Program-made: the position numbers and the translations under genes | IMG/VR virus record: IMGVR_UViG_3300030419_004857 | Coordinates: 1 to 64,000 of that record | Length of the DNA: 64,000 nt | From: a virus | Reading direction: 5' to 3' (one strand) | The notes under the pieces: generated by a model | What the model saw: the letters and a program-made list of their open reading frames with translations, nothing else | The model's database searches: none | What the model was told of the DNA's origin: nothing | Part shown: in pieces, positions 1 through 9,568 of the stretch | Position numbering within the stretch: the first letter of the stretch is position 1 | Layout of the letters: every line of letters starts with the position of its first letter

Positions 1-59
1 ACCGGCCCGCCACGATTCTACGGCTTACAGCCGCGCTCATGCCACCGAGCTACAAGGGC
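1..59 (-). tRNA. tRNA-Tyr(GTA)-like gene, 3' end cut off by window edge
   Basis: Minus strand reads GCCCTTG-TA-GCTC-GGTGGCAT-GAGC-GCGG-CTGTAAG-CCGT-long variable region-GCCGGT...: acceptor 5' strand, D-arm, CT-GTA-AG anticodon loop and start of T-arm. The anticodon stem is only about 4 bp, so it is atypical. Confidence 0.5.
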
Positions 60-73
60 TTCACTTGTTTCAA

Positions 74-85
74 TTGTCAAAGATC
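74..85 (-). promoter_or_regulatory. boxA-like antitermination element (GATCTTTGACAA) upstream of the tRNA-like gene
   Basis: Resembles boxA of rRNA/tRNA leaders; lies between promoter 166-194, the GC hairpin 96-149 and the tRNA. Confidence 0.45.
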
Positions 86-95
86 GTTGTATTAT

Positions 96-149
96 CTCCC
101 CCCGGCAGTAGTCGGCTAGCACCTACTCTTGAGTTGCTGCCGGGGGGAG
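96..149 (-). other. Long GC-rich leader hairpin
   Basis: CTCCCCCCGGCAG...CTGCCGGGGGGAG, 13-bp perfect inverted repeat. Confidence 0.7.
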
Positions 150-165
150 CTTGTGTTGTGCGTGT

Positions 166-194
166 ATTGTACCAGACACGCCTCTGGTTGTCAA
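166..194 (-). promoter_or_regulatory. sigma70-type early promoter
   Basis: TTGACA-17-TACAAT. Confidence 0.85.
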
Positions 195-424
195 CCGTTT
201 TTCTTCATTGCGTCGGAATCGACATACTGAACTGGCAACGTTCGGAAGTGAAGCCCGCCCAGTCCGCAAGCCTCAAAGAACCGGTCACGGTCAAACCGGG
301 GATTCTCTCGTTCAAAGTAATCCGCTAGATCACTCGCCATCTCGTGAGAGAACTCACGCCCCACCTTGGGGAGATGCTTCTTGATGATCGCTGCCTGTTC
401 CTCGAATACTTTTCGCGTCAGCAT
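191..424 (-). CDS. Hypothetical early phage protein (77 aa, MLTRKVFEEQ...NPRFDRDRFFEACG)
   Basis: ORF track 191..490 re-started at ATG 424 (GAGGG RBS), downstream of promoter 462-490. Confidence 0.75.
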   Translation of the reverse strand: MLTRKVFEEQAAIIKKHLPKVGREFSHEMASDLADYFERENPRFDRDRFFEACGLGGLHFRTLPVQYVDSDAMKKNG

Positions 425-461
425 TGTGTCGCCCTCTCGTGTGTTGTTGTTGTGAGCGTGT

Positions 462-490
462 ATTGTATCACACGTCTCGCCTGTTGTCAA
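462..490 (-). promoter_or_regulatory. sigma70-type early promoter
   Basis: TTGACA-17-TACAAT. Confidence 0.85.
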
Positions 491-651
491 CCCTGTTTGT
501 GTGGCTGTCCGGTGAATATGTCAAGCCCGTTCTCGGCTCGCCACTGGTACAACCGGATACGCGACTCACGTTTCTCCGGGGTGTCCTTCACTTGCTTCTG
601 TTGTGGGTTACGATAGTCCGCTGTCGCCTTGCACGGAATACTGATATCCAA
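487..651 (-). CDS. Hypothetical early protein (54 aa, TTG start, MDISIPCKATADYRNPQQ...GLDIFTGQPHKQG)
   Basis: Read manually; AGAGGG RBS; TGA stop overlaps the -35 box of the next promoter. Confidence 0.6.
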   Translation of the reverse strand: MDISIPCKATADYRNPQQKQVKDTPEKRESRIRLYQWRAENGLDIFTGQPHKQG

Positions 652-760
652 CTGTCTGCCCTCTTTCTAGTTCACTGGCTCACAGGTCGTCCCGTTGTGG
701 AGCGGCCTCGTTAGCGTGATACTGTGAACGCTAACGAGGCCGCTTGTTTTACCTCAACCC

Positions 761-952
761 CTACGGGGGTGGGATCATAGCGGGCTTGCACGGTGGCGAA
801 TACCGACCCGCCAACGCTCGGATCAACTCGTCCTCGTCCACCAACATCTGGAAAACGTGGTCGCCAATTGTCACGGCCAAAACCGTAGAGCCAACCGGCC
901 TAGCTTGCGTTGCGTCAAGCGTCTCCACCTTTGCATCATGTATCTGTATCAT
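761..952 (-). CDS. Hypothetical early protein (63 aa)
   Basis: ORF track; GAGG RBS; tiles with the neighbouring minus-strand ORFs. Confidence 0.6.
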   Translation of the reverse strand: MIQIHDAKVETLDATQARPVGSTVLAVTIGDHVFQMLVDEDELIRALAGRYSPPCKPAMIPPP

Positions 953-955
953 CGT

Positions 956-1051
956 CTACCTCGTGCCAATAATAATGAGTGTCCAGTATACCAGAAACGA
1001 CATCGTCAGCCAAGTGTCCCGATCAATCCTTTTCAGTGTCTTCACTTTCAT
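956..1051 (-). CDS. Micro-ORF, 31 aa, hydrophobic C-half (MKVKTLKRIDRDTWLTMSFLVYWTLIIIGTR)
   Basis: Read manually; ATGA overlap with the upstream micro-ORF; GAGGG RBS. Confidence 0.55.
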   Translation of the reverse strand: MKVKTLKRIDRDTWLTMSFLVYWTLIIIGTR

Positions 1052-1119
1052 CCCTCTACAATATCCTTTACCAACAAACTAAACAAAGCCGCTGCCACTG
1101 CCCACATCCACCAACTCAT
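1048..1119 (-). CDS. Hydrophobic micropeptide, 23 aa (MSWWMWAVAAALFSLLVKDIVEG)
   Basis: Read manually; GAGG RBS; directly downstream of promoter 1144-1171. Confidence 0.6.
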   Translation of the reverse strand: MSWWMWAVAAALFSLLVKDIVEG

Positions 1120-1143
1120 CGCGTCAGTCCTCGATTCGTATGT

Positions 1144-1171
1144 ATTATACCAGATATGCCGCCGATGTCAA
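1144..1171 (-). promoter_or_regulatory. sigma70-type early promoter
   Basis: TTGACA-16-TATAAT. Confidence 0.85.
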
Positions 1172-1398
1172 GCCCACCAGATACGCTCACCGGCCAACGC
1201 TCTCGCACCGAGGTGAACCGATTCGGCCCACGCCCACAGCTTCCGATTCTTCTCGGTTGGTACGGCGGATGCCTGAGCCTTGTACTTGTCCATCACGGCT
1301 TTCGCCTTGTCAACGTCGGTCAGCTTGGCACGTTGTGCCCGGTCGATGCCCTTGTTGATTTTCTCTCGTGTGATCTCTGCTGCCATTGTCCAAGTCAT
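1168..1398 (-). CDS. Hypothetical early protein (76 aa, basic, helical)
   Basis: ORF track; AAAGGG RBS; downstream of promoter 1435-1462; stop lies inside the next -35 box. Confidence 0.7.
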   Translation of the reverse strand: MTWTMAAEITREKINKGIDRAQRAKLTDVDKAKAVMDKYKAQASAVPTEKNRKLWAWAESVHLGARALAGERIWWA

Positions 1399-1434
1399 GT
1401 GCGCCCTTTCGTGTGTCGCGTGTTGTATGCCCCC

Positions 1435-1462
1435 ATTATACTATATTATCGTCAAAAGTCAA
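1435..1462 (-). promoter_or_regulatory. sigma70-type early promoter
   Basis: TTGACT-16-TATAAT. Confidence 0.75.
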
Positions 1463-1604
1463 GCCCAACCTCCACCCTATCTCCCCTTTTTTCCTAATTG
1501 AGATCCAGTCTCAACTCACTGACCCACAGCCTTCCCTCTTCGCAAGCCGGGCGGTTGTCGCAAGACAGCCGCCCGGCGCGTTCTACCCTATCCCGCCTTC
1601 TATG

Positions 1605-1724
1605 TCAACCCCAATTTGTCATTATTCCTACGAATGTGATTGTCACCATCGCCGCCGCGAATCCCATTGACAGCATCCACATGAGGATGTATACCCACTC
1701 ACACGCCACACCAAACCACTTCAT
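1605..1724 (-). CDS. Hydrophobic micropeptide, 39 aa (MKWFGVACEWVYILMWMLSMGFAAAMVTITFVGIMTNWG)
   Basis: Read manually; TAATG coupling to ORF 1724..1942; GGAGG RBS. Confidence 0.6.
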   Translation of the reverse strand: MKWFGVACEWVYILMWMLSMGFAAAMVTITFVGIMTNWG

Positions 1725-1942
1725 TAGACTTCCTCCGTTCGGATAGTATAGCAGCCCGCGTCCTCGCCCCGTGGCAGAACTTGATAGGCCACCCCTTCGG
1801 TGGACACCGAGATACTGAACAGCCGATGCCCGTCAGCGTTGTGTACGTCCACGGTCGCCACCCCCAATTCGGGAATGTCTTCCATGCTGAAGAATCCCAT
1901 TCCGCCCTGAGTGTCACAAACGTCCATATGATCAAGTCTCAT
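1724..1942 (-). CDS. Hypothetical early protein (72 aa)
   Basis: ORF track; operon-like tiling. Confidence 0.65.
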   Translation of the reverse strand: MRLDHMDVCDTQGGMGFFSMEDIPELGVATVDVHNADGHRLFSISVSTEGVAYQVLPRGEDAGCYTIRTEEV

Positions 1943-1943
1943 T

Positions 1944-2189
1944 CTACGTCCCCTTCACTTTCCAGATTTTCACTCTCTTGCCCAACTCACCGTTGAACCC
2001 AACACCGCCACCGGTCAGTTGTGAATAGTCAATTGCCATTCCCACCTTGCCACCATCTGCAAGCCCAAGTTGACCATGCAGGATGGTGATGTACTGGTGT
2101 TTGCGGTGAGCCTTCAACGGCACGATTGCGAAGTCGTGCTTGGCTCCCCTGTCGAACAAGTCGCCTGTCTTCGGTTTGTGTTGCATCAT
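1944..2189 (-). CDS. Hypothetical early protein (81 aa)
   Basis: ORF track; GGAG RBS. Confidence 0.65.
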   Translation of the reverse strand: MMQHKPKTGDLFDRGAKHDFAIVPLKAHRKHQYITILHGQLGLADGGKVGMAIDYSQLTGGGVGFNGELGKRVKIWKVKGT

Positions 2190-2197
2190 TTTCTCCG

Positions 2198-2440
2198 TCA
2201 GTCACTCACACAGAATCGGGTAGGGGGACGGTAGTTCGGCCCAGCCTCGTGGGCCGCTTGCCGGTCACGGTTGCCCGCGAACCACGCCTTCCACTCGTCC
2301 AGCCAGTGGGGGAAAGTTATACCAGCCCGCTGGTTGTCAACCTGCTCGCAGCGGAAACACTGGTTGCCCGCCACAAAGGACGCACAAGTCAGTCGGCCAC
2401 AAGCACAGTTGTGTGGGCTGGTGTGATTGTTGTTGGTCAT
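2198..2440 (-). CDS. Hypothetical early protein (80 aa, Cys-rich N-half, possibly Zn-binding)
   Basis: ORF track; GAGGG RBS; CACG..C...CFRC; downstream of promoter 2474-2503. Confidence 0.65.
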   Translation of the reverse strand: MTNNNHTSPHNCACGRLTCASFVAGNQCFRCEQVDNQRAGITFPHWLDEWKAWFAGNRDRQAAHEAGPNYRPPTRFCVSD

Positions 2441-2473
2441 AGTGTTACCCTCTCGTGTTGTTTGTCAGAACGT

Positions 2474-2503
2474 ATTATAGCAGACGCCCCCGCCCGCCGT
2501 CAA
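2474..2503 (-). promoter_or_regulatory. sigma70-type early promoter
   Basis: TTGACG-18-TATAAT. Confidence 0.75.
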
Positions 2504-2505
2504 CC

Positions 2506-2805
2506 CTACCACCCGCAGTCATCGTACTGCCCGTGGTCCCAGTCGTCCCCACCCATGTAATCCTGCCACTCGGTGTACTCGTCCGGTTGCCCGTCGTCCT
2601 CATAGTAGTCGTCGTCGTCCACGTCCTCCACCACCGGCAACTCGTCCTTGCGGATCTGGAACGTCTCCGGTTCGTCTTTGGCTCCGAACACCGGGAACGG
2701 GTACGCTGGGGGGTACGGTGCGGATTCTTCCCGTGCCCGCTTGTCGGCCTCGATGATCTGGGCCTCGATGTCGGTCACGTTGTCGCGGGTCTCGTCGTGT
2801 CGCAT
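2506..2805 (-). CDS. Small highly acidic protein, paralogue A (99 aa)
   Basis: GGAG RBS; D/E-rich; aligns with 3352..3576. Confidence 0.8.
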   Translation of the reverse strand: MRHDETRDNVTDIEAQIIEADKRAREESAPYPPAYPFPVFGAKDEPETFQIRKDELPVVEDVDDDDYYEDDGQPDEYTEWQDYMGGDDWDHGQYDDCGW

Positions 2806-2960
2806 GGTATCTCCATTTTTCTCACTGGCTCACAAGCAGCACCGTTGTGGAGCGGCCTTGTTAGCGTGAGACTGCGAACGCTAACAAGGCCGCTTGTTTT
2901 ACCTGAACATCGCGGCGGGTCGACCCCGGAACTTGGGGAGCTTGTCACCCGTGTGCGTGT

Positions 2961-2989
2961 ATTGTATCCGACCTCGCCCCGGCTGTCAA
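2961..2989 (-). promoter_or_regulatory. sigma70-type early promoter
   Basis: TTGACA-17-TACAAT. Confidence 0.85.
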
Positions 2990-3093
2990 CCCCTATTGTT
3001 GGTCAGCCGCCAGATAAGTCGGTCCATCAGGTCAGCACAAACGATTCCGCCAAACACGGCGAACACCAGATCGGTAAACCACATGTCGTGCAT
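2986..3093 (-). CDS. Micropeptide, 35 aa (MHDMWFTDLVFAVFGGIVCADLMDRLIWRLTNNRG)
   Basis: Read manually; GGAG RBS; stop inside the next -35 box. Confidence 0.55.
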   Translation of the reverse strand: MHDMWFTDLVFAVFGGIVCADLMDRLIWRLTNNRG

Positions 3094-3213
3094 CAGACTA
3101 CTCCATTGCCCTTTTCACACTGACTCACGAGTCGCTCCGTTGTGGAGCAGCGTCGTTGACCTAGGACGAAACGACGCTGCTTGTTCTACCTGAACAGCGC
3201 CGCGTCCCGCCGA

Positions 3214-3285
3214 TCACAGCGTTTCCAGATTTACCAACAACTGGTACACCGCCACTCCCGCCGCTATCACATACATCACGCCCAT
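3214..3285 (-). CDS. Hydrophobic micropeptide, 23 aa (MGVMYVIAAGVAVYQLLVNLETL)
   Basis: Read manually; GAGGG RBS. Confidence 0.5.
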   Translation of the reverse strand: MGVMYVIAAGVAVYQLLVNLETL

Positions 3286-3292
3286 ATCGCCC

Positions 3293-3343
3293 TCACTTGT
3301 AAACCGCAATAAACAACAAAGCCGCCGCCGCCACTTGCACCAT
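3293..3343 (-). CDS. Hydrophobic micropeptide, 16 aa (MVQVAAAALLFIAVYK)
   Basis: Read manually; weak RBS; shares VAAAL with 1048..1119. Confidence 0.4.
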   Translation of the reverse strand: MVQVAAAALLFIAVYK

Positions 3344-3351
3344 CGTATCCA

Positions 3352-3576
3352 CTAGTAGCCCTCACCCCACACGGATTCACTGTGATCATAGTACTCGTCA
3401 CCGCCGAAGTAATCTTGCCACTCGTCATACTCCGATGGCTGATGATCATCTTCCTCAATGTCGTCTTCATCGGTCACGACCGCATCGAAGAACCAACCCG
3501 CCGTCTCGCGGTTGTCGGCCTCGATGATGGTATCTTCGGTGTCGGTGATGTTGTCGCGTGTGTCGTCGAATCGCAT
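3352..3576 (-). CDS. Small highly acidic protein, paralogue B (74 aa)
   Basis: AAGGG RBS; aligns with 2506..2805. Confidence 0.8.
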   Translation of the reverse strand: MRFDDTRDNITDTEDTIIEADNRETAGWFFDAVVTDEDDIEEDDHQPSEYDEWQDYFGGDEYYDHSESVWGEGY

Positions 3577-3653
3577 TGTGTCTACCCTTTCAAGGTAAGT
3601 GTGTTGGGTCGGCCCCGTTGAGTGGGGAGCTTGTCACCCGTGTGTATGTAGGT

Positions 3654-3682
3654 ATTGTATCAGGACTGCCAACGAGTGTCAA
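3654..3682 (-). promoter_or_regulatory. sigma70-type early promoter
   Basis: TTGACA-17-TACAAT. Confidence 0.85.
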
Positions 3683-3878
3683 CCGTCCGCTTCACGTATC
3701 TCCGTCGCCACACCCCACGGATGTACTGTTCACTTCCACAGTGGAGAATGGTGTTGCTGTAATCACCATGCCGGATGCCGATGTACCAGCTTGTACCCCG
3801 ATGCCACATGGTGATTTCTCTGTCGTTAGCCTTGCACCATGTCATGGTCGGTGCGGTTGTCGCGATCACGGTCTTCAT
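3660..3878 (-). CDS. Hypothetical early protein (72 aa)
   Basis: ORF track; start uncertain. Confidence 0.55.
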   Translation of the reverse strand: MKTVIATTAPTMTWCKANDREITMWHRGTSWYIGIRHGDYSNTILHCGSEQYIRGVWRRRYVKRTVDTRWQS

Positions 3879-3975
3879 TTCTCTGACTCACAGGGGGTGT
3901 TGTTGTGGAGCAGCGTTGTTAGCGTGAGACGGGCGAACGCTAACAACGCTGCTTGTCTTACCCGACCTCCGACCG

Positions 3976-4041
3976 CTAGTCGAAGTCGCCAAGCAGCCAA
4001 GCGATGATGATGATAAGTCCGAGGTAACCTGAGAAGCCCAT
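3976..4041 (-). CDS. Hydrophobic micropeptide, 21 aa (MGFSGYLGLIIIIAWLLGDFD)
   Basis: GGAG RBS; own promoter 4073-4101; paralogue at 4759..4824 differs by synonymous/conservative changes. Confidence 0.75.
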   Translation of the reverse strand: MGFSGYLGLIIIIAWLLGDFD

Positions 4042-4072
4042 GTCATTCTCCATGTGTGATGTGTATGCCAGT

Positions 4073-4101
4073 ATATTACCGACTCGCCTCTCCCGTGTCA
4101 A
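4073..4101 (-). promoter_or_regulatory. sigma70-type early promoter
   Basis: TTGACA-17-TAATAT with an AT-rich upstream tract. Confidence 0.75.
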
Positions 4102-4249
4102 CCCCCAATTTACTAATTTATAAAATCGCTGGCTCACGCCTCCCCTTCTTGTGGAGCCGCGTGGATGTCCTAAGACCATTCACGCGGCTCGTCTTACCCG
4201 ATCTCGGAAAAATCCGGTTTTGGGCTTGACTTCCGCGCGGCGGTTGATC

Positions 4250-4423
4250 TCAGCAATGCCGGTGTGTGTCGTGCCAATAGTCGAACCCGCTTGGCCCGTC
4301 GCCGGTCGGTTTCGGCTTGTCGGTTTTCACGCCGCTCGCCTCGTCCGCTTTCCGCTTGGCGACCCGAGCCTTATAGTCGGCCCATCGTTTGCGTCGCCGT
4401 TCCCAGTCTTGTGCGTTTGTCAT
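4250..4423 (-). CDS. Hypothetical basic protein (57 aa, MTNAQDWERRRKRWADYKARVAKRK...)
   Basis: Read manually; starts 3 nt after the endonuclease stop; AAGGGA RBS. Confidence 0.55.
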   Translation of the reverse strand: MTNAQDWERRRKRWADYKARVAKRKADEASGVKTDKPKPTGDGPSGFDYWHDTHRHC

Positions 4424-4426
4424 TCT

Positions 4427-4759
4427 CTATCCCTTCAAGTAATTGATTGCCCGACGCAGCATGTCGATGCTGTCGCCAAACTTGCCAAGTGCGTTGTTGC
4501 AGTCGTTGCACAACCAGCCCCGAAACTCATCGGTGTCGTGGTCGTGGTCGAGTACGATCTTGCCGCCGCTCCGTTTGCAGATCGGACACGTCGCGTCGGT
4601 CGGTTTCGTATTCTCCCGATGGAGTCTTGCCCGGACTTTCCGTTGGTGTCCCCGGCAATCGTTGCAAGTGTGTTTCCGCAACACGCCGCTTGGCAGTGTG
4701 TTGTTGATCGGAAAGTGGTCGAGTGGTTTCGTCTCGTCACATCGTTTGCAGATCCGCAT
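4427..4759 (-). CDS. Recombination endonuclease VII-family (His-Me finger) nuclease
   Basis: CPIC...LDHDHDT..FRGWLC..CN.ALG.F.D...L..A..YL signature plus an N-terminal CxxC/CxxC finger. Confidence 0.88.
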   Translation of the reverse strand: MRICKRCDETKPLDHFPINNTLPSGVLRKHTCNDCRGHQRKVRARLHRENTKPTDATCPICKRSGGKIVLDHDHDTDEFRGWLCNDCNNALGKFGDSIDMLRRAINYLKG

Positions 4760-4824
4760 TAGTCGAAGTCTCCCAAGACGAAAGCGAGCACAATCAGCAG
4801 TCCGAGGTAACCTGAGAATCCCAT
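4759..4824 (-). CDS. Hydrophobic micropeptide, 21 aa (MGFSGYLGLLIVLAFVLGDFD)
   Basis: GGAG RBS; own promoter 4859-4886; TAATG-coupled to the endonuclease VII gene. Confidence 0.75.
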   Translation of the reverse strand: MGFSGYLGLLIVLAFVLGDFD

Positions 4825-4858
4825 TGTCGTTTTCTCCGTTGCGTTGTTGTATCTGTCC

Positions 4859-4886
4859 ATTGTAGCAAACCGCCGCCCGCTGTCAA
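4859..4886 (-). promoter_or_regulatory. sigma70-type early promoter
   Basis: TTGACA-16-TACAAT. Confidence 0.8.
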
Positions 4887-4888
4887 CC

Positions 4889-5014
4889 CTACCGCCGTCG
4901 CGACTTGAACGGGTTGAAGCGGCAGAAGTCTTGCACTGCGATCAGCCCCATCGGAACCACGATCAGTGCGAGTGCGGTCAGTGCGATCAGTGCGTCGATT
5001 GTTGTGGTCGTCAT
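4889..5014 (-). CDS. Single-TM micropeptide, 41 aa (MTTTTIDALIALTALALIVVPMGLIAVQDFCRFNPFKSRRR)
   Basis: GGAG RBS; own promoter 5048-5075; similar to 5856..5957. Confidence 0.7.
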   Translation of the reverse strand: MTTTTIDALIALTALALIVVPMGLIAVQDFCRFNPFKSRRR

Positions 5015-5047
5015 TGTGTTGTCTCCGTTGCGTTGTTGTGAGTCTCC

Positions 5048-5075
5048 ATTGTAGTTGATCGGCCACCTACGTCAA
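5048..5075 (-). promoter_or_regulatory. sigma70-type early promoter
   Basis: TTGACG-16-TACAAT. Confidence 0.75.
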
Positions 5076-5109
5076 TCCACTTTAGTCACTTTGGCCCATT
5101 TTTTTCCAG

Positions 5110-5151
5110 TGCAACTACCGTGCCAAACGGCCCCAGCAAAACCCGTGCCAA
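5110..5151 (-). promoter_or_regulatory. Two tandem sigma54 (-24/-12) consensus sites
   Basis: TTGGCACG-GGTT-TTGCT (5135-5151) and TTGGCACG-GTAG-TTGCA (5110-5126), both matching TGGCACG-N4-TTGCW. Confidence 0.7.
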
Positions 5152-5167
5152 TCGGAAAATTTCCTTA

Positions 5168-5203
5168 TTGAGACTGAGTCTCAACATGTAGCATTATGCT
5201 ACA
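5168..5203. promoter_or_regulatory. Two adjacent 17-bp operator-like palindromes
   Basis: TTGAGACT-G-AGTCTCAA (5168-5184; related copy at 1498-1514) and TGTAGCAT-T-ATGCTACA (5187-5203). Confidence 0.65.
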
Positions 5204-5311
5204 CTTCGCCTTCAAGCTGCATGGGTGTGGAAAGACACACCCATGCAGCTTGTCTTACCCGACCCCCTAGAGGGCCGGGCTTGCCCAGCTTACCAAGCTT
5301 ACCCAGCTTGC

Positions 5312-5383
5312 CTACCAGTCCGCGTTCCCCAAAAGCCCCTCATATACCACAGCTACCAAAGCCACCAGAAACAGCGTATTCAT
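5312..5383 (-). CDS. Hydrophobic micropeptide, 23 aa (MNTLFLVALVAVVYEGLLGNADW)
   Basis: Read manually; lies in a ~200-bp duplicated unit; paralogue at 5515..5577. Confidence 0.65.
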   Translation of the reverse strand: MNTLFLVALVAVVYEGLLGNADW

Positions 5384-5514
5384 GCCAATTTCCCTATCTT
5401 ACCTAGCTTCACACACTCCGCCGTTCATCGGCGTCGTTGGGCTACAACGAAACGACGCCGATAGTCTTACCCGACCCCCCATTGGGCCGGGCTTACCCAT
5501 CTTGCCAAGTCTGC

Positions 5515-5577
5515 CTATCCCCCCAAAAGCCCCTCGTAGATGATAGCTGCCAGAGCGACCAGAAATAGCGTATTCAT
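5515..5577 (-). CDS. Hydrophobic micropeptide, 20 aa (MNTLFLVALAAIIYEGLLGG)
   Basis: GGGAG RBS; differences from the paralogue are synonymous or conservative. Confidence 0.68.
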   Translation of the reverse strand: MNTLFLVALAAIIYEGLLGG

Positions 5578-5740
5578 ACCAAACTCCCTATCTTGCCTAG
5601 CTTCCGTCACGTCGCCGTCAATCAGCGTCGTTGAGGTGAAACGAAACGACGCTGATCGTCCTACCTCATCCCGCCCTGCACGGTGGGCCGACCCCGGAGC
5701 TTGGGGAGCTTTCGCCCTTGTGTGCTGTGAGCGCCTCGCC

Positions 5741-5791
5741 TCATCCGTCGATGATGATGGCGATGATCGCGATGATCAGAAACCAATTCAT
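5741..5791 (-). CDS. Hydrophobic micropeptide, 16 aa (MNWFLIIAIIAIIIDG)
   Basis: GGGAG RBS; own promoter 5825-5853. Confidence 0.65.
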   Translation of the reverse strand: MNWFLIIAIIAIIIDG

Positions 5792-5824
5792 GTTGTTCTC
5801 CCTAGTGCGTTGTTGTGTACGGGT

Positions 5825-5853
5825 ATTGTATACCAACACCCCACCACTGTCAA
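5825..5853 (-). promoter_or_regulatory. sigma70-type early promoter
   Basis: TTGACA-17-TACAAT. Confidence 0.85.
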
Positions 5854-5855
5854 CC

Positions 5856-5957
5856 CTACTTGCGCCACGAGTGTGCCCGTGCATCCTGAATACCGAGGAT
5901 GATGATGGGCAGGACGATGGCGGTCAGCATGGCGGCGGTGATGAGTGTGTTGGTCAT
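5856..5957 (-). CDS. Single-TM micropeptide, 33 aa (MTNTLITAAMLTAIVLPIIILGIQDARAHSWRK)
   Basis: GGAG RBS; similar to 4889..5014. Confidence 0.62.
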   Translation of the reverse strand: MTNTLITAAMLTAIVLPIIILGIQDARAHSWRK

Positions 5958-5986
5958 GGCCTGTGGCTCCGGTTATGTCGTCGTTG

Positions 5987-7200
5987 ATCAGGGTCGTTGA
6001 GGTGGCACGAAACGACCCTGATTGTATTACCTGAAAGCGTTGTTCGAATTTTCAAGCATTAGATTATGGGATTTCTAAAGTGTAGCATAATGCAACAGTT
6101 AAAAGTTCGCCGGTTTCTTGGTCTCCGAACACTCGATCCGCCGCACTTTAACGTGGCTAGCTTGAATAAGACAAGATAGCCACGTCGTCCTACCTAATGC
6201 TGTTCGAGTTTTGAAGCCTTAGATTGTGGCATCTCTAAAGTGTTGCATTATGCAACAGTAAAAGTTGGCCAGTTTCAAGGTTTCGCAACGCTCGATCCGC
6301 CGCTCTTTAACGTGGGTGAGTTGAGTAGGACAACTCACCCACGTCGTCCTACCTGAAAGTGCCCCGATTCGTATGCTTGAAGCCCTTCAATCCGGGCAAC
6401 TCTAAAGTGTAGCGAAATGATACACAAAAAGTTCCCCTAGTTCAAGCGCTCTCAACCCTCGATCCGCCGCACCTCAACGCGGGTGGATTGTAAAAGACAA
6501 TACACCCGCGTCGTCTTACCCAAAAGTTCCCCCGATTCAAACGCTTCAAGCCCTTCAATCTGGGCATGTTGAAAGTGTAGCATTATGCTACAAAAAAAGT
6601 TCCCTAGTTTCTTGGTCTCGCAACCCTTGATCCGCCGCACTTCATGAGGCTAGGTTGAGTAGGACAACCTAGCCTCATCGTTCTACCTAAACAGGTGCTT
6701 CAAACCTCGAACAATGCTATATACGGGCAAACACGACGCGACGTAACTCGTTGCTATTGCTGGACTTAGAGTGTAGCAAAAAGCCACACGCTAACTAACT
6801 TGTAAAAGATCGCACATGCTCATTTATCGCCGCCTTTGATGTGGCTAGGTTGAATAGGACAACCTAGCCACATCGGATCACCCGATCTAATGTTCCAAAC
6901 CTCGCACAACGCTATATACAGCCAAACGCGCCGCGCCCTAAGTCGTTGGTATCACTAGGCTTAGGGTGTAGCAAAAAGCCACACACTATCTAAGGCTTCA
7001 AACCTCGCACATGCTCACTTACGCCCATCTTCGACTTGGATAGATTGAAGAGGACAATCTATCCAAGTTGGCTTACCTGAAAGGCTCAAAACCTCGCACA
7101 TCACTATATACGCCTAACTGTCATAATGGCAGACATATGCTATATTGGCACTGTCATACTGGCACACTGCCACCCTGACATGTGTAGCATTATGCACCAC
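5987..7200. repeat. Non-coding degenerate tandem array of seven units (hairpin + GTYYTACCY + TGTAGCA-N3-TGCWACA-like palindrome)
   Basis: Hairpin starts spaced 164, 159, 167, 167, 195 and 195 bp; palindromes at 6081, 6241, 6408, 6576, 6772, 6967 and 7183; shared CTCGATCCGCCGC and AAACCTCGCACA blocks. Confidence 0.9.
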
Positions 7201-7369
7201 TGGCTCGGGCAATTGGCGCAAAAGGCACTTTAGGTAGTCTAGGTAAGGTGGGGTTTTCTGTTTGGATAGGTAAAAAGGGTAAAAAAGGAGAAAAAGCCGG
7301 GGTGGTGCTAACAAAATTGGCACGCCCATCAATAAAAGTATTAGCTAAACTGTCCCTATATGCCCCTTT

Positions 7370-7825
7370 TCATTCACCCAGCGCCCGCTTGTTCCCCTTT
7401 TTCTTCATCGCCGTTTCAGGATCAATCCCCTTATTCAACCTATTATAAAATGCCGCGTAGCTAACTTCGCACCTTTCATCCTCCACCCACTCGCCCACAT
7501 TCTTTTCTTCCCCAAAAGCCTCAATTTTCACATTAGACTTCATGTTATTGGCGTTCTCTTTCGGAGTCACCTCCCGCAAATTGGCCCTAGTGTTGTTCAG
7601 CCTGTCATTATCTAAGTGATCTACAAAGATATACGGACTACTAGTGCCCGCAACCATCCTATGCATCGACTTATGCCTTCCCCCAATTTTTGTAATGGCA
7701 TAGCCCTGCTTATTGATATGCCAGCTATACCTGCTCAGCCATGCATAATCTTCCGGGCTAACTTTTACATACTGCCCTGCCCCCGTCACGCCCCCCAAGG
7801 GGATCTCAAAATATAGATCACTCAT
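7370..7825 (-). CDS. HNH endonuclease (homing-type)
   Basis: SMHRMV...VDHLDNDRLNNTRANLREVT.KENANN motif. Confidence 0.85.
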   Translation of the reverse strand: MSDLYFEIPLGGVTGAGQYVKVSPEDYAWLSRYSWHINKQGYAITKIGGRHKSMHRMVAGTSSPYIFVDHLDNDRLNNTRANLREVTPKENANNMKSNVKIEAFGEEKNVGEWVEDERCEVSYAAFYNRLNKGIDPETAMKKKGNKRALGE

Positions 7826-8042
7826 TTTCTGATTCCTTTTTGTTTACGGTTTTACATACGCTCCTACCATGAGCCTTAGCTATACCCATTGAATATCGCC
7901 CTTTCCTCACTTGATCCACACTAACGCTGTCCTTTATTCCTAGTTCATACCTGATTCTGGTCAACTCTATTGAGATTCTTTCGTCTGTATATGTGTTACA
8001 CAGATTTTTAATGTAATCTTTTTCTTTTTCTGTGAGTTTCAT
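7818..8042 (-). CDS. Hypothetical small protein, possibly HTH-like
   Basis: ORF track 7818..8138; ATG at 8042 preferred; overlaps the HNH start. Confidence 0.55.
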   Translation of the reverse strand: MKLTEKEKDYIKNLCNTYTDERISIELTRIRYELGIKDSVSVDQVRKGRYSMGIAKAHGRSVCKTVNKKESENE

Positions 8043-8123
8043 AGTGTGACTTTCAAAGACTTCATGTGTATAATATAATATGGCGACTTTTAATTTTTCC
8101 GCACACATTTTAGGCCGTAAACC

Positions 8124-8297
8124 ATGAAAAGAATTCAAGCAGAATTAGCTATGCGTGCCAGTGCTGAGTTGGAAAAGGAGATTGAAGAAGAGCTTCAGAA
8201 GGAAGATCCCGATCCAAAACAGGCTAAGGCAATATTAAAAGCTGATGAAAATTCCAAAAGGGATGACCGAAGACCAAGTGATCGAGACAATAAATAA
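8124..8297 (+). CDS. Hypothetical charged protein (57 aa)
   Basis: Read manually, downstream of GTGTATAAT 8066-8074. Confidence 0.35.
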   Translation: MKRIQAELAMRASAELEKEIEEELQKEDPDPKQAKAILKADENSKRDDRRPSDRDNK

Positions 8298-8787
8298 AGT
8301 TATATCAAGATATATTTATAAATTTCGATTTGGTTATTACGAGTCAGAAGATATCAGACAAGAAGCTTTCATTATCGCAATGGAGGCTCTTGAAAGGTAT
8401 GACGAAGAGCGTCCGTTAGAAAATTTTCTGGCTGTCCATGTAAAAAACCGTTTAAGCAACTTTAAACGCGACAAATTCTTTCGTAAAGAAGGGGATTCTA
8501 CCAAAACCGACTGGAATTCCCCTAACAATGCTAAGAGGTTTCTTATGGAACCGCTAAATATTGACAATATCAGGGATGAGTACGAAGAGAATATGAAAGA
8601 TCCAGACGATTTTATTGATCGTATAGCCAATACAGAGATATTCGGCTTGATCGACAAGAGTCTGGACATCAAATACAGGGCAGACTATCTGAGAATGCTT
8701 GACGGAGTCTACGTCCCCAAGCCCCGTAGAGAACAAATCTACCAAGAGATACTCTCCATTTTAAGGAGCACCAATGAAGAAGGGTAG
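8245..8787 (+). CDS. Phage sigma70-family sigma factor (region 2-like; candidate late sigma)
   Basis: EDIRQEAFIIAMEALERYDEERPLENFLAVHVKNRLSNFKR resembles sigma region 2. Confidence 0.75.
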   Translation: MKIPKGMTEDQVIETINKVISRYIYKFRFGYYESEDIRQEAFIIAMEALERYDEERPLENFLAVHVKNRLSNFKRDKFFRKEGDSTKTDWNSPNNAKRFLMEPLNIDNIRDEYEENMKDPDDFIDRIANTEIFGLIDKSLDIKYRADYLRMLDGVYVPKPRREQIYQEILSILRSTNEEG

Positions 8788-9568
8788 ATTTTCAAAAACA
8801 GAGATCTCTTTCATTACAGAGAATCACGAAACTTTAAGCTATCAAGAAATAGCTTTAAAATTGAATCGTGATGCTTACAGCGTAGAGAACTTTATCAAGA
8901 GTAAGCTTGGTGAATCGATAGAAGATAAGAAAAGAATCCAAGCGCTCTATGATTTAAAAAACCGTCCCTACTGGGAAGACCTCAAAGGCCAGTTCAACGA
9001 ACACGAACTTGAGATGCTTTTATACCATTGGGGTCGCATCATAGGCCAATTCAGAGACGACGTTCTACCAACTGAAGAACTTCAGGTCTTAGACGCCATC
9101 AAACTAGAAGTCCTCATGAATCGCGCTCTAAAAAATCAACAAACGAACATGGAAGACATCGATACATACGAAGAGCAGATTACAGAAGAGAAGGGTAGAC
9201 CAATTGAATACCAAGACAGAGACTACATATTCAATCTTGAAAGACAAATAGCTGTAGCCAGAGCAGCCCAAGAAGCTCTAGGACGTGATTACAAAGACCT
9301 ACAAGTCAAAAAATCCGCCATGCTTAAAGATCTCAAGGCTACCAGAGAACAGAGAATCAAACGGCTGGAAGATTCCAAGCAGACATTCATATCTTGGGTT
9401 TCAAACTTAATGACCAACCCTGATATTAGACAAGAGATAGGAACAGAAATGGAAAAGATGCGTCTATCCATTAACAAAGAAAAAGAAAGACTATCTGAAT
9501 GGCATCAATACGAAGATAAGCTCGTAGATCAACCTTTCCTAACCCCGGACACTGTCAAGGATGAGTAA
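8774..9568 (+). CDS. Hypothetical protein with N-terminal HTH-like and coiled-coil regions (possible terminase small subunit)
   Basis: LSYQEIALKLNRDAYSVENFI is HTH-like; the TerS assignment is inference only. Confidence 0.45.
   Translation: MKKGRFSKTEISFITENHETLSYQEIALKLNRDAYSVENFIKSKLGESIEDKKRIQALYDLKNRPYWEDLKGQFNEHELEMLLYHWGRIIGQFRDDVLPTEELQVLDAIKLEVLMNRALKNQQTNMEDIDTYEEQITEEKGRPIEYQDRDYIFNLERQIAVARAAQEALGRDYKDLQVKKSAMLKDLKATREQRIKRLEDSKQTFISWVSNLMTNPDIRQEIGTEMEKMRLSINKEKERLSEWHQYEDKLVDQPFLTPDTVKDE

Follow-up and report, generated by a model that had tools for sequence, protein, structure and literature searches.

Hairpin elements joined to a fixed box form a clade-specific family in the early region of an uncultured marine phage

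Results

Early module and location of the hairpin elements

The window analyzed here is the whole stretch of 64,000 nucleotides at positions 1 to 64,000 of the IMG/VR virus record IMGVR_UViG_3300030419_004857, a 161-kb record (G000). Its left part holds minus-strand early operons, and the far end of the record is a continuation of the same high-GC early module, which measures 15.4 kb (9.5% of the genome). Eleven near-consensus sigma-70-type promoters on the minus strand drive the early genes, which makes this strand the transcribed sense strand of the module; the promoter scan returned 20 promoter-like sites versus 7.3 expected. The features are listed below in window coordinates.

166..5853, minus strand: eleven sigma-70-type promoters (TTGACA, 16-18 nt, TAYAAT), first-to-last bases 194-166, 490-462, 1171-1144, 1462-1435, 2503-2474, 2989-2961, 3682-3654, 4101-4073, 4886-4859, 5075-5048 and 5853-5825
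675..753, plus strand: element 1; upstream motif CTGGCTCAC at 675-683, hairpin 701-744 (17 bp, loop 10), box TGTTTTACC at 745-753; 8 nt past the stop of a minus-strand 63-aa gene, ahead of a promoter-less 54-aa gene
1519..1587, plus strand: element 2; upstream motif CTGACCCAC at 1519-1527, hairpin 1546-1577 (14 bp including one T.G, loop 4), box GCGTTCTACC; after a 39-aa gene, ahead of promoter 1462-1435
2825..2903, plus strand: element 3; upstream motif CTGGCTCAC at 2825-2833, hairpin 2851-2894 (17 bp), box TGTTTTACC; inside a 5' UTR, with promoter 2989-2961 on one side and start codon 2805 on the other
3120..3190, plus strand: element 4; upstream motif CTGACTCAC at 3120-3128, hairpin 3146-3181 (12 bp, loop 12 with TAGGAC), box TGTTCTACC; between a 23-aa gene and a promoter-less 35-aa gene
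3883..3962, plus strand: element 5; upstream motif CTGACTCAC at 3883-3891, hairpin 3909-3953 (17 bp, loop GAGACGGGCGA), box TGTCTTACC; intercistronic, the next gene's start codon (3878) abutting the upstream motif
4129..4199, plus strand: element 6; upstream motif CTGGCTCAC at 4129-4137, hairpin 4154-4190 (14 bp including one G.T), box GTCTTACCC; after a 57-aa gene, 28 nt upstream of the -35 hexamer of promoter 4101-4073
5213..5260, plus strand: element 7; hairpin 5213-5252 (17 bp, loop 6), box GTCTTACCC
5427..5472, plus strand: element 8; hairpin 5427-5462 (12 bp, loop 12), box AGTCTTACCC; between two tiny hydrophobic ORFs that are tandem duplicates
5621..5665, plus strand: element 9; hairpin 5621-5656, box CGTCCTACC
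5987..6031, plus strand: element 10; hairpin 5987-6022, degenerate box TGTATTACC; followed by a 33-aa gene at 5957-5856
6151..6194, plus strand: element 11; hairpin 6151-6185 with one G/A mismatch, box CGTCCTACC; within the gene-free tandem array
6310..6353, plus strand: element 12; hairpin 6310-6344, loop AGTAGGA, box CGTCCTACC; top covariance-model score (64.5 bits)
6477..6520, plus strand: element 13; hairpin 6477-6511, box CGTCTTACC
6644..6687, plus strand: element 14; hairpin 6644-6678, box CGTTCTACC
6838..6883, plus strand: element 15; hairpin 6838-6874, degenerate box GGATCACCC
7034..7077, plus strand: element 16; hairpin 7034-7068, degenerate box TGGCTTACC
6024..7200, unstranded: gene-free array; aligning its repeats gives six or seven tandem units, each 160-195 bp long

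All 16 inverted repeats reported by a first-pass annotation were verified, with stems of 12-17 bp, complementarity of 93-100%, and loops of 4-12 nt. Counting hairpins with a stem of at least 12 and at most one mismatch, positions 601-7150 contained 16, compared to a mean of 0.17 and a maximum of 3 in 100 dinucleotide-preserving shuffles; the density there was 2.44 per kb, compared to 0.034 per kb in the other 146 kb of the genome. The 16 members first proposed are not the whole family: the right end of the record carries at least four further clear copies (155570, 157258, 158539, and 159930) and one decayed copy near 153474-153555. The elements do extend into gene-free DNA, as had been noted: from 6024 onward, each unit of the array combines a single hairpin element with a single palindromic box, of the type TGTAGCAT-T-ATGCTACA. 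A search for ORFs at 6024-7200 gave no convincing ones, and the array lies where the minus-strand early module meets the HNH and sigma-factor genes.

Covariation of the stem and distribution of the family

A covariance model detected 50 copies in seven related marine phage contigs (the window and six others), and 3 more copies were found in two further related contigs. All 50 + 3 copies share one orientation relative to the early genes and the terminase gene, as is naturally expected for a transcribed signal. In the early region of this phage and its close relatives, the hairpins form a family restricted to the clade, its modular units measuring about 55-60 nt. No Rfam family matched, in keeping with the initial remark that the element was not recognized as a known family, and the family appears previously undescribed. 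IMG/VR yielded no copy outside the phage clade, its 56 other pattern-matching loci having no covariance-model match. Among the matches listed, bacterial genomes showed no cluster of copies: at least 119 stretches matched, those listed had one match each, and testing 80 of them with the covariance model gave two marginal matches.

Stem positions were paired in 90.4% of cells, compared to 61.2% in shuffles and 30-54% in slid controls, and compensatory changes occurred in 10 of the 11 stem pairs (137 cells with double changes). The compensatory changes described between individual copies (701 versus 2851; 5427 versus 5621 versus 5987) proved real, and the covariance analysis that had been proposed gave strong covariation support. 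On this pattern, the stem structure is judged to be under selection. Predicted RNA hairpin stabilities ranged from -18 to -37 kcal/mol, the minus-strand RNA of element 1 folding at -37 kcal/mol (z -6.9). A C.C mismatch recurred at the third pair from the foot in 17/50 copies whose stems otherwise differ, and looks like a possible recognition feature. Among single stem mismatches, 12 were A.C or C.A (G.U in the minus-strand RNA) and 5 were G.T or T.G, corresponding to about 8 and 5 independent events, so that on these counts neither RNA strand seems clearly favored.

Conserved box, upstream motif, and loop half-sites

Long (17 bp stem) and short (12-15 bp stem) forms occur, and in both a stem of free sequence is joined to one fixed box. 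The hairpin followed by the box YGTYYTACC(CGA) was the only feature common to every copy. As described in the first-pass annotation, GTYYTACC follows the hairpin in the window, exactly in 13 copies and in degenerate form in three (GTATTACC at 6024, GGATCACC at 6875, and GGCTTACC at 7070). The 3' box is also kept in relatives that have hardly any other early-region DNA in common with G000 (only 4 BLAST segments), which implies sequence-specific recognition. Read along the minus-strand RNA, the order is 5'-(UC)GGGUARRACR, hairpin, and then a purine-rich leader or ribosome-binding site.

The motif CTGRCYCAC was found at 675, 1519, 2825, 3120, 3883, and 4129, each time starting 26 nt before the aligned stem A, which equals the 17-nt gap reported for these six left copies. 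The exact spacing stands in G000 but is not family-wide: in most relatives the left flank differs, often being CTAGTTCAC ahead of a ribosome-binding site, at a variable distance, and the motif with this spacing is essentially private to G000. It is most simply explained by shared descent of paralogous cassettes. Similarly, the inverted motif TARRAC, said to end most loops 13-15 nt before the box, was exact in the example at 6326-6351 (TAGGAC-N14-GTCCTA) but in only about 6 of the 16 copies overall; in long-stem copies the 5' side of the loop carries GAGAC or GATAC, 23-24 nt from the box. Half-sites are spaced 13-16 nt apart in the short forms, compared to 23-27 nt in the long ones. Loop/flank complementarity was only mildly above the shuffled control, and the proposal of paired inverted half-sites was not supported: a constant loop CTGAGAC stands beside GTCTTAC, GTCCTAC, GTATTAC, and GTTTTAC and does not covary with them.

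Placement in the early operons

All copies are intergenic, with a minus-strand stop codon 0-100 nt ahead of them; downstream comes either the next promoter, at 60-130 nt, or a ribosome-binding site with its start codon, at 8-60 nt. Promoter-less genes lie directly behind elements (651-487, 3093-2986, 3878-3660, 5577-5515, and 5383-5312), as does, behind element 3, the sole gene served directly by promoter 2989-2961; the elements must therefore be read through, and element 3 in particular, since it lies within a 5' UTR. No U-tract follows the stem on the transcribed strand of the elements. Canonical hairpin-plus-U-tract terminators occur in the same genome (69464, about 158600, and about 153580), and two copies (158539 and about 153474-153555) lie directly behind strong ones. 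These three observations argue that the elements are not plain terminators. About ten copies stand upstream of a promoter rather than ahead of a gene.

Recombination junctions and candidate enzymes

Near-identical copies share the hairpin and box only: measured from where the box starts, homology extends leftward for 45-51 nt and rightward for 8-13 nt. Of 75 homology-block ends, 14 fell 0-30 nt after the box start (1.8% expected). The related contig G004 is without 1.58 kb that in G007 sits between two identical copies. The elements thus behave as the cassette boundaries initially suggested, and the breakpoint comparison in related phages bore this out, through the enriched block ends and that one indel. 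Judging from these breaks, the elements sit where gene modules were swapped. At orthologous sites, the element was 86-98% identical, compared to 67-84% for the adjacent gene. Three near-identical copies in G005 (2942, 6428, and 8076; 96-98%) have unrelated sequence on both flanks, which requires duplication or gene conversion of the element alone; G007 has two 100% identical copies with unrelated flanks. Beside one and the same element, G004 has a second small palindrome, TTATTGAGAC-N3-GTCTCAAT, that G007 lacks.

The 161-kb record contained no recognizable integrase, resolvase, Y1 transposase, or RNase III, and no detectable tyrosine or serine recombinase, RecT, or ERF gene. An Endonuclease VII-family protein is encoded in the early module (4427-4759, E 3.5e-18); its gene did not turn up in the early regions fetched from relatives. 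An HNH endonuclease gene (7370-7825), conserved at 77-78% identity in G003 and G004, adjoins the array.

Discussion

The reading we prefer, with a probability of roughly 0.4, is that the elements are a factor-recognized RNA processing, stability, or attenuation signal doubling as a recombination junction. Host RNA polymerase would transcribe the early units on the minus strand with the elements embedded in that RNA, and a conserved trans-acting factor, either an endoribonuclease of host or phage or an RNA-binding protein, would read the box plus hairpin as an intercistronic processing, decay-barrier, or attenuation signal. In this way, an early region dense in promoters and nearly devoid of terminators would be split into messages that are tuned separately. 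No other sequence is conserved across this otherwise hypervariable region, and the elements may for that reason double as crossover points for homologous recombination that would shuffle, delete, and duplicate gene cassettes. We infer from the sequence that RNA rather than DNA is the active form, and likewise the active strand and the identity of the factor; to our knowledge, no ribonuclease needs such a box. Counting against an RNA signal are the stem mismatches that favor neither strand clearly, the lack of a recognizable RNase III gene in the phage, the copies behind terminators, which little minus-strand RNA is expected to reach, the copies upstream of promoters, and the duplication of the element alone, which a purely regulatory signal does not predict.

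The candidate functions listed at first pass, from recombination and nicking to RNA processing and genome entry, do not reduce to one from sequence alone. We consider it rather doubtful, though worth weighing, that the hairpin forms in single-stranded or supercoiled DNA and is read with its box by a structure-specific protein. Such a protein might nick one strand, in the manner of the strand-specific nicks known from T5 or phiKMV-type phages; it might also swap cassettes, act in priming replication, or make DNA entry pause at the edge of a first-entering early segment. The elements combine a variable stem, a fixed single-stranded box at its foot, and a recurrent mismatch near the foot, an architecture they share with relaxase nic sites, IS200/IS605 ends, REP/RAYT targets, and attC sites. 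GC-rich 17-bp arms with 10-nt loops, however, extrude poorly as cruciforms. The placement of all copies on one strand, stem mismatches without a clear RNA strand bias, the copies behind terminators and upstream of promoters, for which an RNA role is harder to see, the homology breaks at the box with the indel, and the two endonuclease genes all fit a DNA site. So does the gene-free array at the inner border of the early module, where many related contigs end, which recalls the T5 injection-stop region (bioRxiv 10.1101/866236). The missing recombinase, Y1 transposase, RecT, and ERF genes and the failure to find the Endonuclease VII gene in the early regions fetched from relatives speak against it, crossovers in 55-150 bp of shared sequence need no special enzyme, and tight confinement to transcribed spacers that separate stop from start codons is what RNA signals more typically show. 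Sharp-edged homology units, near-identical copies in G005 and identical ones in G007 with unrelated flanks, and the second palindrome in G004 would also suit a selfish REP- or MITE-like miniature palindrome, copied into spacers by a host or unrecognized enzyme with incidental regulation. We regard this as improbable: the phage has no transposase, no target-site duplication was seen, the IMG/VR search gave no copies beyond the clade, the bacterial matches listed formed no clusters, and strict orientation, strict intergenic placement, and strong compensatory evolution argue for function.

A role as plain terminators or attenuators within the early operons, like that assigned to PeSL stem-loops, which terminate efficiently in reporter assays (PMC2839356), would account for stable GC-rich hairpins just past stop codons and for the roughly ten copies between the end of a transcription unit and the next promoter. 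We rejected plain termination on the missing U-tract (the stem is followed by CCACAACGG, UGAGGAGG, AAGGAG, and similar), the promoter-less genes and one whole 5' UTR behind elements, and the phage's own canonical terminators, twice directly ahead of an element; the terminator scan also picked up 0/16 elements and the invariant box is left unexplained, so this role is very unlikely. Least probable is a plus-strand RNA, in which the hairpin and CGUCUUACC would end short antisense or decoy products starting near GTGTAGCA boxes in the array and, for the six left copies, at a sigma-54-like CTGGC(T)CAC 24 nt before the stem. In G000 the tail has more U (UGUUUUACC) but remains a poor U-tract, and the GG of the upstream motif at -24 from the first stem base, with a perfect TGGCAC-N5-TTGC at G000 158516-158531, is offset by a -12 GC missing from the right position in most copies, by GA in place of the -24 GG in several, and by the absence of the motif in most relatives. 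Long-form loops start and finish with GA on the plus strand, and a conserved box lies about 60-75 nt ahead of each array hairpin; however, no plus-strand promoter, of sigma-70 type or of the phage's own GTGTATAAT type, precedes the elements, and one-sided changes in the array flanking helix fit the minus strand as G.U pairs.

The RNA signal with a junction role has parallels in known systems. RNase III sites likewise divide the T7 early operon into separate messages, REP hairpins in E. coli operons have a comparable role, and the PeSL cassettes of T4-type phages are shuffled by recombination, much as proposed here for the junctions.

Hairpin elements and their place in the early module

All 16 of the inverted repeats described in the first-pass annotation were recovered, with stems of 12-17 bp that are 93-100% complementary and loops of 4-12 nt. 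With a minimum stem length of 12 bp and one mismatch allowed, 16 hairpins were counted between positions 601 and 7150 of the window, compared to a mean of 0.17 in 100 dinucleotide-preserving shuffles. The density in this interval is 2.44 hairpins per kb; elsewhere in the viral record (G000), over 146 kb, it is 0.034 per kb. The same-side box GTYYTACC was found exactly after 13 of the hairpins and in degenerate form after three, as annotated, and the compensatory stem pairs named there were correct. A covariance model trained on 19 copies and run on the plus strand of G000 (E<0.01) recovered all copies and nothing else. Further copies were located at the far end of the record:

G000 155570, 157258, 158539 and 159930: clear copies of the element
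G000 about 153474-153555: decayed copy

G000, an IMG/VR phage record of 161,265 bp whose first 64 kb are the window, is rated complete by CheckV. Its early module of approximately 15.4 kb (bases 1-7,100 and 153,000-161,265; 9.5% of the genome) has a GC content of about 54%, compared to 38-48% (about 42%) in the rest of the genome, and since it occupies both ends, the record begins partway through the early region. The genes of the module are small, lie on the minus strand, and stand behind about 25 near-consensus sigma-70-type promoters. The following features lie within the module or at its edge:

4427-4759, minus strand: Endonuclease VII-family gene, inside the early module
6024-7200: gene-free array of tandem units, in the right part of the hairpin-bearing stretch
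7370-7825, minus strand: HNH_3 endonuclease gene, adjoining the array, 77-78% identical in relatives
8245-8787, plus strand: sigma-factor gene (sigma-70 region 2), the first plus-strand gene

The plus-strand virion genes come next, including the terminase and a 2,908-aa tape measure. The phage has no close isolate, its terminase being 23-30% identical to those of Bacillus and Microcystis phages.

Distribution among related phages

IMG/VR contains hundreds of contigs with a terminase 65-81% identical to that of G000. The element was present in every related contig that extends into the early region, a region known in only nine genomes, several comparisons between which are not independent. A covariance model and an IMG/VR search, which the first-pass annotation had proposed as a check, yielded 50 copies. 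At E<0.01, 31 of the 50 matches were in six related contigs, with at least two in each and up to about eleven at looser thresholds; three extra copies were found in two more contigs reached through the HNH gene. Orientation relative to the terminase gene was the same in all copies. A more distant relative, the complete 173-kb genome G001 (terminase 66% identical), contained no such hairpins, either in the whole record or in the 10 kb upstream of the terminase.

In the alignment of the 50 copies, 90.4% of the cells were paired, compared to 61.2% after shuffling, and pairing fell to 30-54% when the partner columns were slid. Both sides had changed in 137 cells, and compensatory changes were observed in 10 of the 11 pairs.

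Outside the clade, no match to window 1-8000 was obtained when 50,697 phage records were searched with megablast. An exact-pattern scan of IMG/VR for loop and box returned 60 stretches, of which only four, from known relatives, were real; the remaining 56 had no covariance-model match, and thus no true copy was found outside the clade. The same kind of scan over 185,579 bacterial and archaeal genomes (one per species) gave at least 119 stretches, each a single scattered match. When 80 of these were examined with the covariance model, two marginal matches were obtained, and neither a host repeat family nor clustered copies appeared among the prokaryotic pattern matches listed. The annotation had also assigned the element to no known family, in agreement with an Rfam cmscan of window 1-9000 (E<=1), in which the single match, to gyrA RNA, was sub-threshold and not usable (25.5 bits, gathering score 45).

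Anatomy of the element

In the long form, which looks ancestral, the plus-strand stem comprises 17 bp, with AGCSGC-N11 paired to N11-GCSGCT. The loop has 10-13 nt, with GAGAC (or GATAC) at its 5' side and GA at its 3' side, and the box immediately 3' of the stem reads CGTCTTACCC(GA). Short forms at window 3146-7081 retain the box and a stem of 12-15 bp. Hairpin and box are the only features common to every copy. Across the family, stems measure 12-19 bp and are mostly perfect and GC-rich, with stabilities of -18 to -37 kcal/mol. A C.C mismatch at the third pair from the foot recurs in 17 of 50 copies whose stems are otherwise different. Counts of G.U versus A.C mismatches revealed no clear RNA strand bias.

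In each of the six left copies, the motif CTGRCYCAC was indeed found 17 nt ahead of the aligned stem base, but it is nearly private to G000 and cannot be regarded as a family feature: in most relatives the left flank differs, often being CTAGTTCAC (sense strand GTGAACTAG) right before a ribosome-binding site, at variable distance. Loop and box resemble the proposed inverted half-sites in some short forms, but there is no covariation and the spacing varies between forms. An alternative stem or pseudoknot joining the loop to the 3' box was rejected, as it lacked covariation, barely exceeded the shuffled control, and would be sterically implausible across a helix of 14-17 bp. No stem-arm targets in trans were found elsewhere in G000 except three chance 11-mers, and a search for extra conserved RNA structure in the tandem units, on both strands of four sequences, gave nothing convincing.

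Placement in the early operons

In G000 and two relatives (G005 and G006), all copies are intergenic and lie 0-100 nt past a minus-strand stop codon. About half of the copies have a ribosome-binding site and start codon 8-60 nt further on, with no promoter between; in about ten, the -35 hexamer of the next promoter comes after 60-130 nt. One copy sits in a 5' UTR, and six make up the gene-free array. Many transcription units run right up to the next promoter without any hairpin at their end, so the elements are not simple delimiters of transcription units.

An intrinsic terminator would require a stable, GC-rich hairpin, which the element has, but the U-tract is missing on the transcribed strand: past the stem, the minus strand reads CCACAACGG, UGAGGAGG, AAGGAG, and similar sequences, and the plus strand CGUCUUACC. 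A terminator scan picked up none of the 16 elements. In addition, genes without a promoter of their own lie behind elements, as does the gene served by the promoter at 2989-2961 (start codon 2805), and these need read-through. Plain termination is therefore among the less likely explanations. Canonical U-tract terminators do exist elsewhere in G000, among them two members of one family:

G000 158,598-158,640 (6598-6640 of stretch L087), minus strand: terminator with inner loop CCGGTTCGCCGG
G000 153,575-153,612 (L087:1575-1612), minus strand: terminator with inner loop CCGGTTCGCCGG

Both have a hairpin element 10-45 nt downstream; the phage thus possesses ordinary terminators and still adds the element directly behind them.

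Promoter and antitermination signals were also considered. In a sigma-54 promoter, exemplified by TGGCAC-N5-TTGC, GG occupies -24 and GC occupies -12. Examined as such a promoter, CTGRCYCAC has GA at -24 in several copies, lacks the GC at -12 in most, and is itself missing in most relatives; the single copy that fits is the following:

G000 158,516-158,531 (L087:6516-6531), plus strand: perfect sigma-54-type -24/-12 sequence, TGGCAC-N5-TTGC

The transcription start predicted from this sequence coincides with the hairpin foot. A split sigma-70 promoter, with the TTGACA often present 5-10 nt past the box as its -35, was dismissed for inconsistent -10 and spacing. A lambda-type nut site occurs once per early operon and consists of a boxA consensus and then a short boxB hairpin whose loop is conserved. 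In the elements, the transcribed-strand box is GGGUAAGACG and not CGCUCUUA, stems have 12-17 bp, and of about 20 copies just one is directly behind a promoter; this candidate was rejected as well.

Mosaic early regions and recombination junctions

In the relatives, the early region is a mosaic of blocks of 100-570 bp whose order differs, as between G005 and G007. When pairs of elements with 80-100% identical hairpins were compared, the shared sequence usually did not extend leftward past the hairpin foot (45-51 nt) or rightward past the last base of the box (8-13 nt), and near-identical hairpins with unrelated flanks include three copies within G005 and two within G007. Among homology blocks of at least 120 nt, 14 of 75 right ends fell 0-30 nt past the first base of the box, compared to an expectation of 1.8%. 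Moreover, G004 corresponds to G007 minus 1.58 kb, and the missing stretch is flanked by two identical copies. The location of elements at cassette boundaries, suggested by the annotation, is borne out by these block ends at the box and by this indel. Once redundant comparisons were removed, break points were about equally frequent on both sides of the element, and the idea that elements travel with the downstream gene was dropped for this reason. At orthologous sites, the element is 86-98% identical and the adjacent gene 67-84%, which may reflect strong selection on pairing or, equally, homogenization by recombination.

Possible mechanisms

The reading that best accounts for the elements is, in our view, a cis-acting RNA signal carried by the early messages and read by a conserved factor, with their use as recombination junctions being secondary; working from sequence comparison, we assign this reading a probability of roughly 0.4. 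It is suggested by the fact that all copies point the same way relative to transcription, are packed tightly between stop and start codons, have to be read through, and combine a helix of free sequence with a conserved single-stranded box beside it. The factor would read the element as a cleavage, decay-barrier, or attenuation signal. Recombination at the elements would follow from their being the only shared sequence, as in the promoter-early stem-loop (PeSL) cassettes (PMC2839356).

A site acting at the DNA level, for structure-specific nicking, recombination, priming, or a pause during entry, is a serious rival, although we judge it less probable. It is supported by the lack of a clear RNA strand bias in the stem mismatches, by the location of some copies upstream of promoters or behind terminators, and by the presence of genes for Endo VII-like and HNH nucleases. 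As for other enzymes, all negatives in G000 rest on Pfam models. No tyrosine recombinase, including the IntI type (PF00589), was found in G000, the control search being positive in 14 of 14 genomes; serine recombinase, RecT, ERF, and RNase III were likewise undetectable in the 161-kb record. It would be rather improbable that a hairpin-directed DNA transaction operates in this lytic phage, with strand-specific nicking or cassette exchange at GTYYTACC performed by an enzyme class not yet linked to such sites. In that case, the conserved HNH protein encoded nearby and the early Endo VII-like protein would be the candidates, and the host-takeover cassettes would be integron-like without a tyrosine recombinase.

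Selfish spread is less likely; the elements are discrete units with unrelated flanks, a trait shared with REP sequences, and a search for the Y1/RAYT transposase (PF01797) in G000 was negative, with a control search positive in 6 of 14 genomes. An RNA signal made from the plus strand is also less likely.

Comparison with known systems

We file the family, which is undescribed, as a variety of a known type of phage early-region organizer. Its nearest counterparts, PeSLs, T7 RNase III sites, REPs, and attC sites, each have at least one defining feature that it lacks. PeSL cassettes are known from the T4-type phages RB49 and phi1 (Arbiol et al., 2010; PMC2839356). They share with our elements the arrangement as repeated intergenic modules in a hyperplastic early region rich in small ORFans, the combination of strong sigma-70-type promoters with stable GC-rich stem-loops, and the concentration in a hypervariable early region whose modules are swapped or deleted by recombination between copies. 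By definition, the sigma-70-type early promoter and the stem-loop of a PeSL form a single short motif, the stem-loop lying inside the -35/-10 region or beside it and acting as a terminator (PMC2839356). In contrast, in about ten copies of the hairpin described here the next -35 lies 60-130 nt downstream, and the others have no promoter; the hairpin is joined to an invariant box of 9-13 nt, lacks a U-tract, and has to be read through. The two are not similar in sequence, and phage lineage and host differ.

The elements also resemble the RNase III sites of the T7 early operon in being paralogous intercistronic hairpins of host-transcribed early genes with shared local sequence features, which are read through rather than terminating and would remain on the messages as protective hairpins. 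The T7 sites (R0.3, R0.5, R1, R1.1, and R1.3) are irregular helices of about 20 bp (about two turns) that contain an internal loop and lack a fixed single-stranded box, whereas our elements have nearly perfect 12-17-bp stems and a conserved box outside the helix, and the phage has no detectable RNase III.

REP/BIME sequences of enterobacteria, which serve as decay barriers and attenuators, are similarly short transcribed intergenic palindromes close behind stop codons; in both, a short conserved motif adjoins the hairpin foot, which on the element's minus strand is GGTAGGAC or GGTAAGAC, compared to GTAG in REPs. REPs are host-genome repeats with hundreds of copies, conserved stems, and often alternating orientation, unlike the elements, with about 20 copies per phage genome, one orientation, stems free to vary, and no detectable Y1/RAYT gene.

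With attC sites, the elements share structure-conserved, sequence-variable hairpins at cassette boundaries, a short conserved core at one end, where homology between cassettes stops, and a recurrent mismatch. They lack the R''/L''/L'/R' organization, their core is an unpaired YGTYYTACC and not GTTRRRY, no IntI or other tyrosine recombinase was detected, and the cassettes often have their own promoters. Phage T5 has untranslated repeat regions and an injection stop signal (Davison, bioRxiv 10.1101/866236). The likeness to T5 is restricted to the gene-free array at 6024-7200; there is no DnaA-box pattern and no sequence similarity, and most elements are dispersed among genes and not confined to a border.

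No part of a large phage genome is more variable or less understood than the early host-takeover region. Across the clade of uncultured marine phages described above, a single short and easily recognized signal, a hairpin of free sequence with a fixed box, organizes this region and marks module swaps. An RNA processing or stability signal would imply a conserved factor and would provide a compact insulator part for polycistronic designs, and a signal acting on DNA would represent a new route to cassette exchange or site-specific nicking in lytic phages. Either way, the covariance model is a practical marker of early regions and cassette borders in metagenomes, where contigs typically break.

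Other features of the early module

Many related contigs (L279, L280, L282, L284, and others) end 0.9-2.4 kb past the HNH gene, at the edge of the module. The wrapped module and these contig breaks could correspond to a long terminal repeat or a first-entering segment as in T5, or simply to a hypervariable region that breaks assembly. Three further repeated motifs were recognized in the window and its relatives:

5176-5192, 6073-6089, 6240-6256, 6408-6424, 6575-6591, about 6770, about 6966 and 7183-7199: 17-bp palindromic box TGTAGCAT-T-ATGCTACA, some copies degenerate
1500-1513 and 5165-5183: small palindrome (T)TATTGAGAC-N3-GTCTCAAT
L092:10290; L093:8184, 9226 and 10094; G004 1621 and 3174; L096:2253: the same small palindrome in relatives (G004 is L097 read in reverse)
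96-149, 2915-2950, 3605-3645 and 5680-5722: leader stem-loop aagctCCCC...GGGG, directly after several early promoters

The 17-bp palindrome occurs once per array unit, 10-75 nt ahead of each hairpin, and the series resembles operators or iterons arrayed where the early module borders the sigma-factor gene. Several hairpin elements have the small palindrome 20-45 nt to their left; G004 contains it and G007 lacks it at the same spot, and it thus behaves as an independent indel. The leader stem-loop is probably a 5' stabilizer of early transcripts.

Window positions 5252-5471 and 5464-5665 form a tandem duplication with 75% identity, each unit containing a tiny hydrophobic ORF (MNTLFLVAL...) and a hairpin element; the early module has many other hydrophobic ORFs of 14-40 aa. 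An 80-nt repeat was observed at both ends of the record (window 1-80 and G000 160,435-160,515, L087:8435-8515), where it sits within apparent stable-RNA operons that have tRNA-like sequences on the minus strand.
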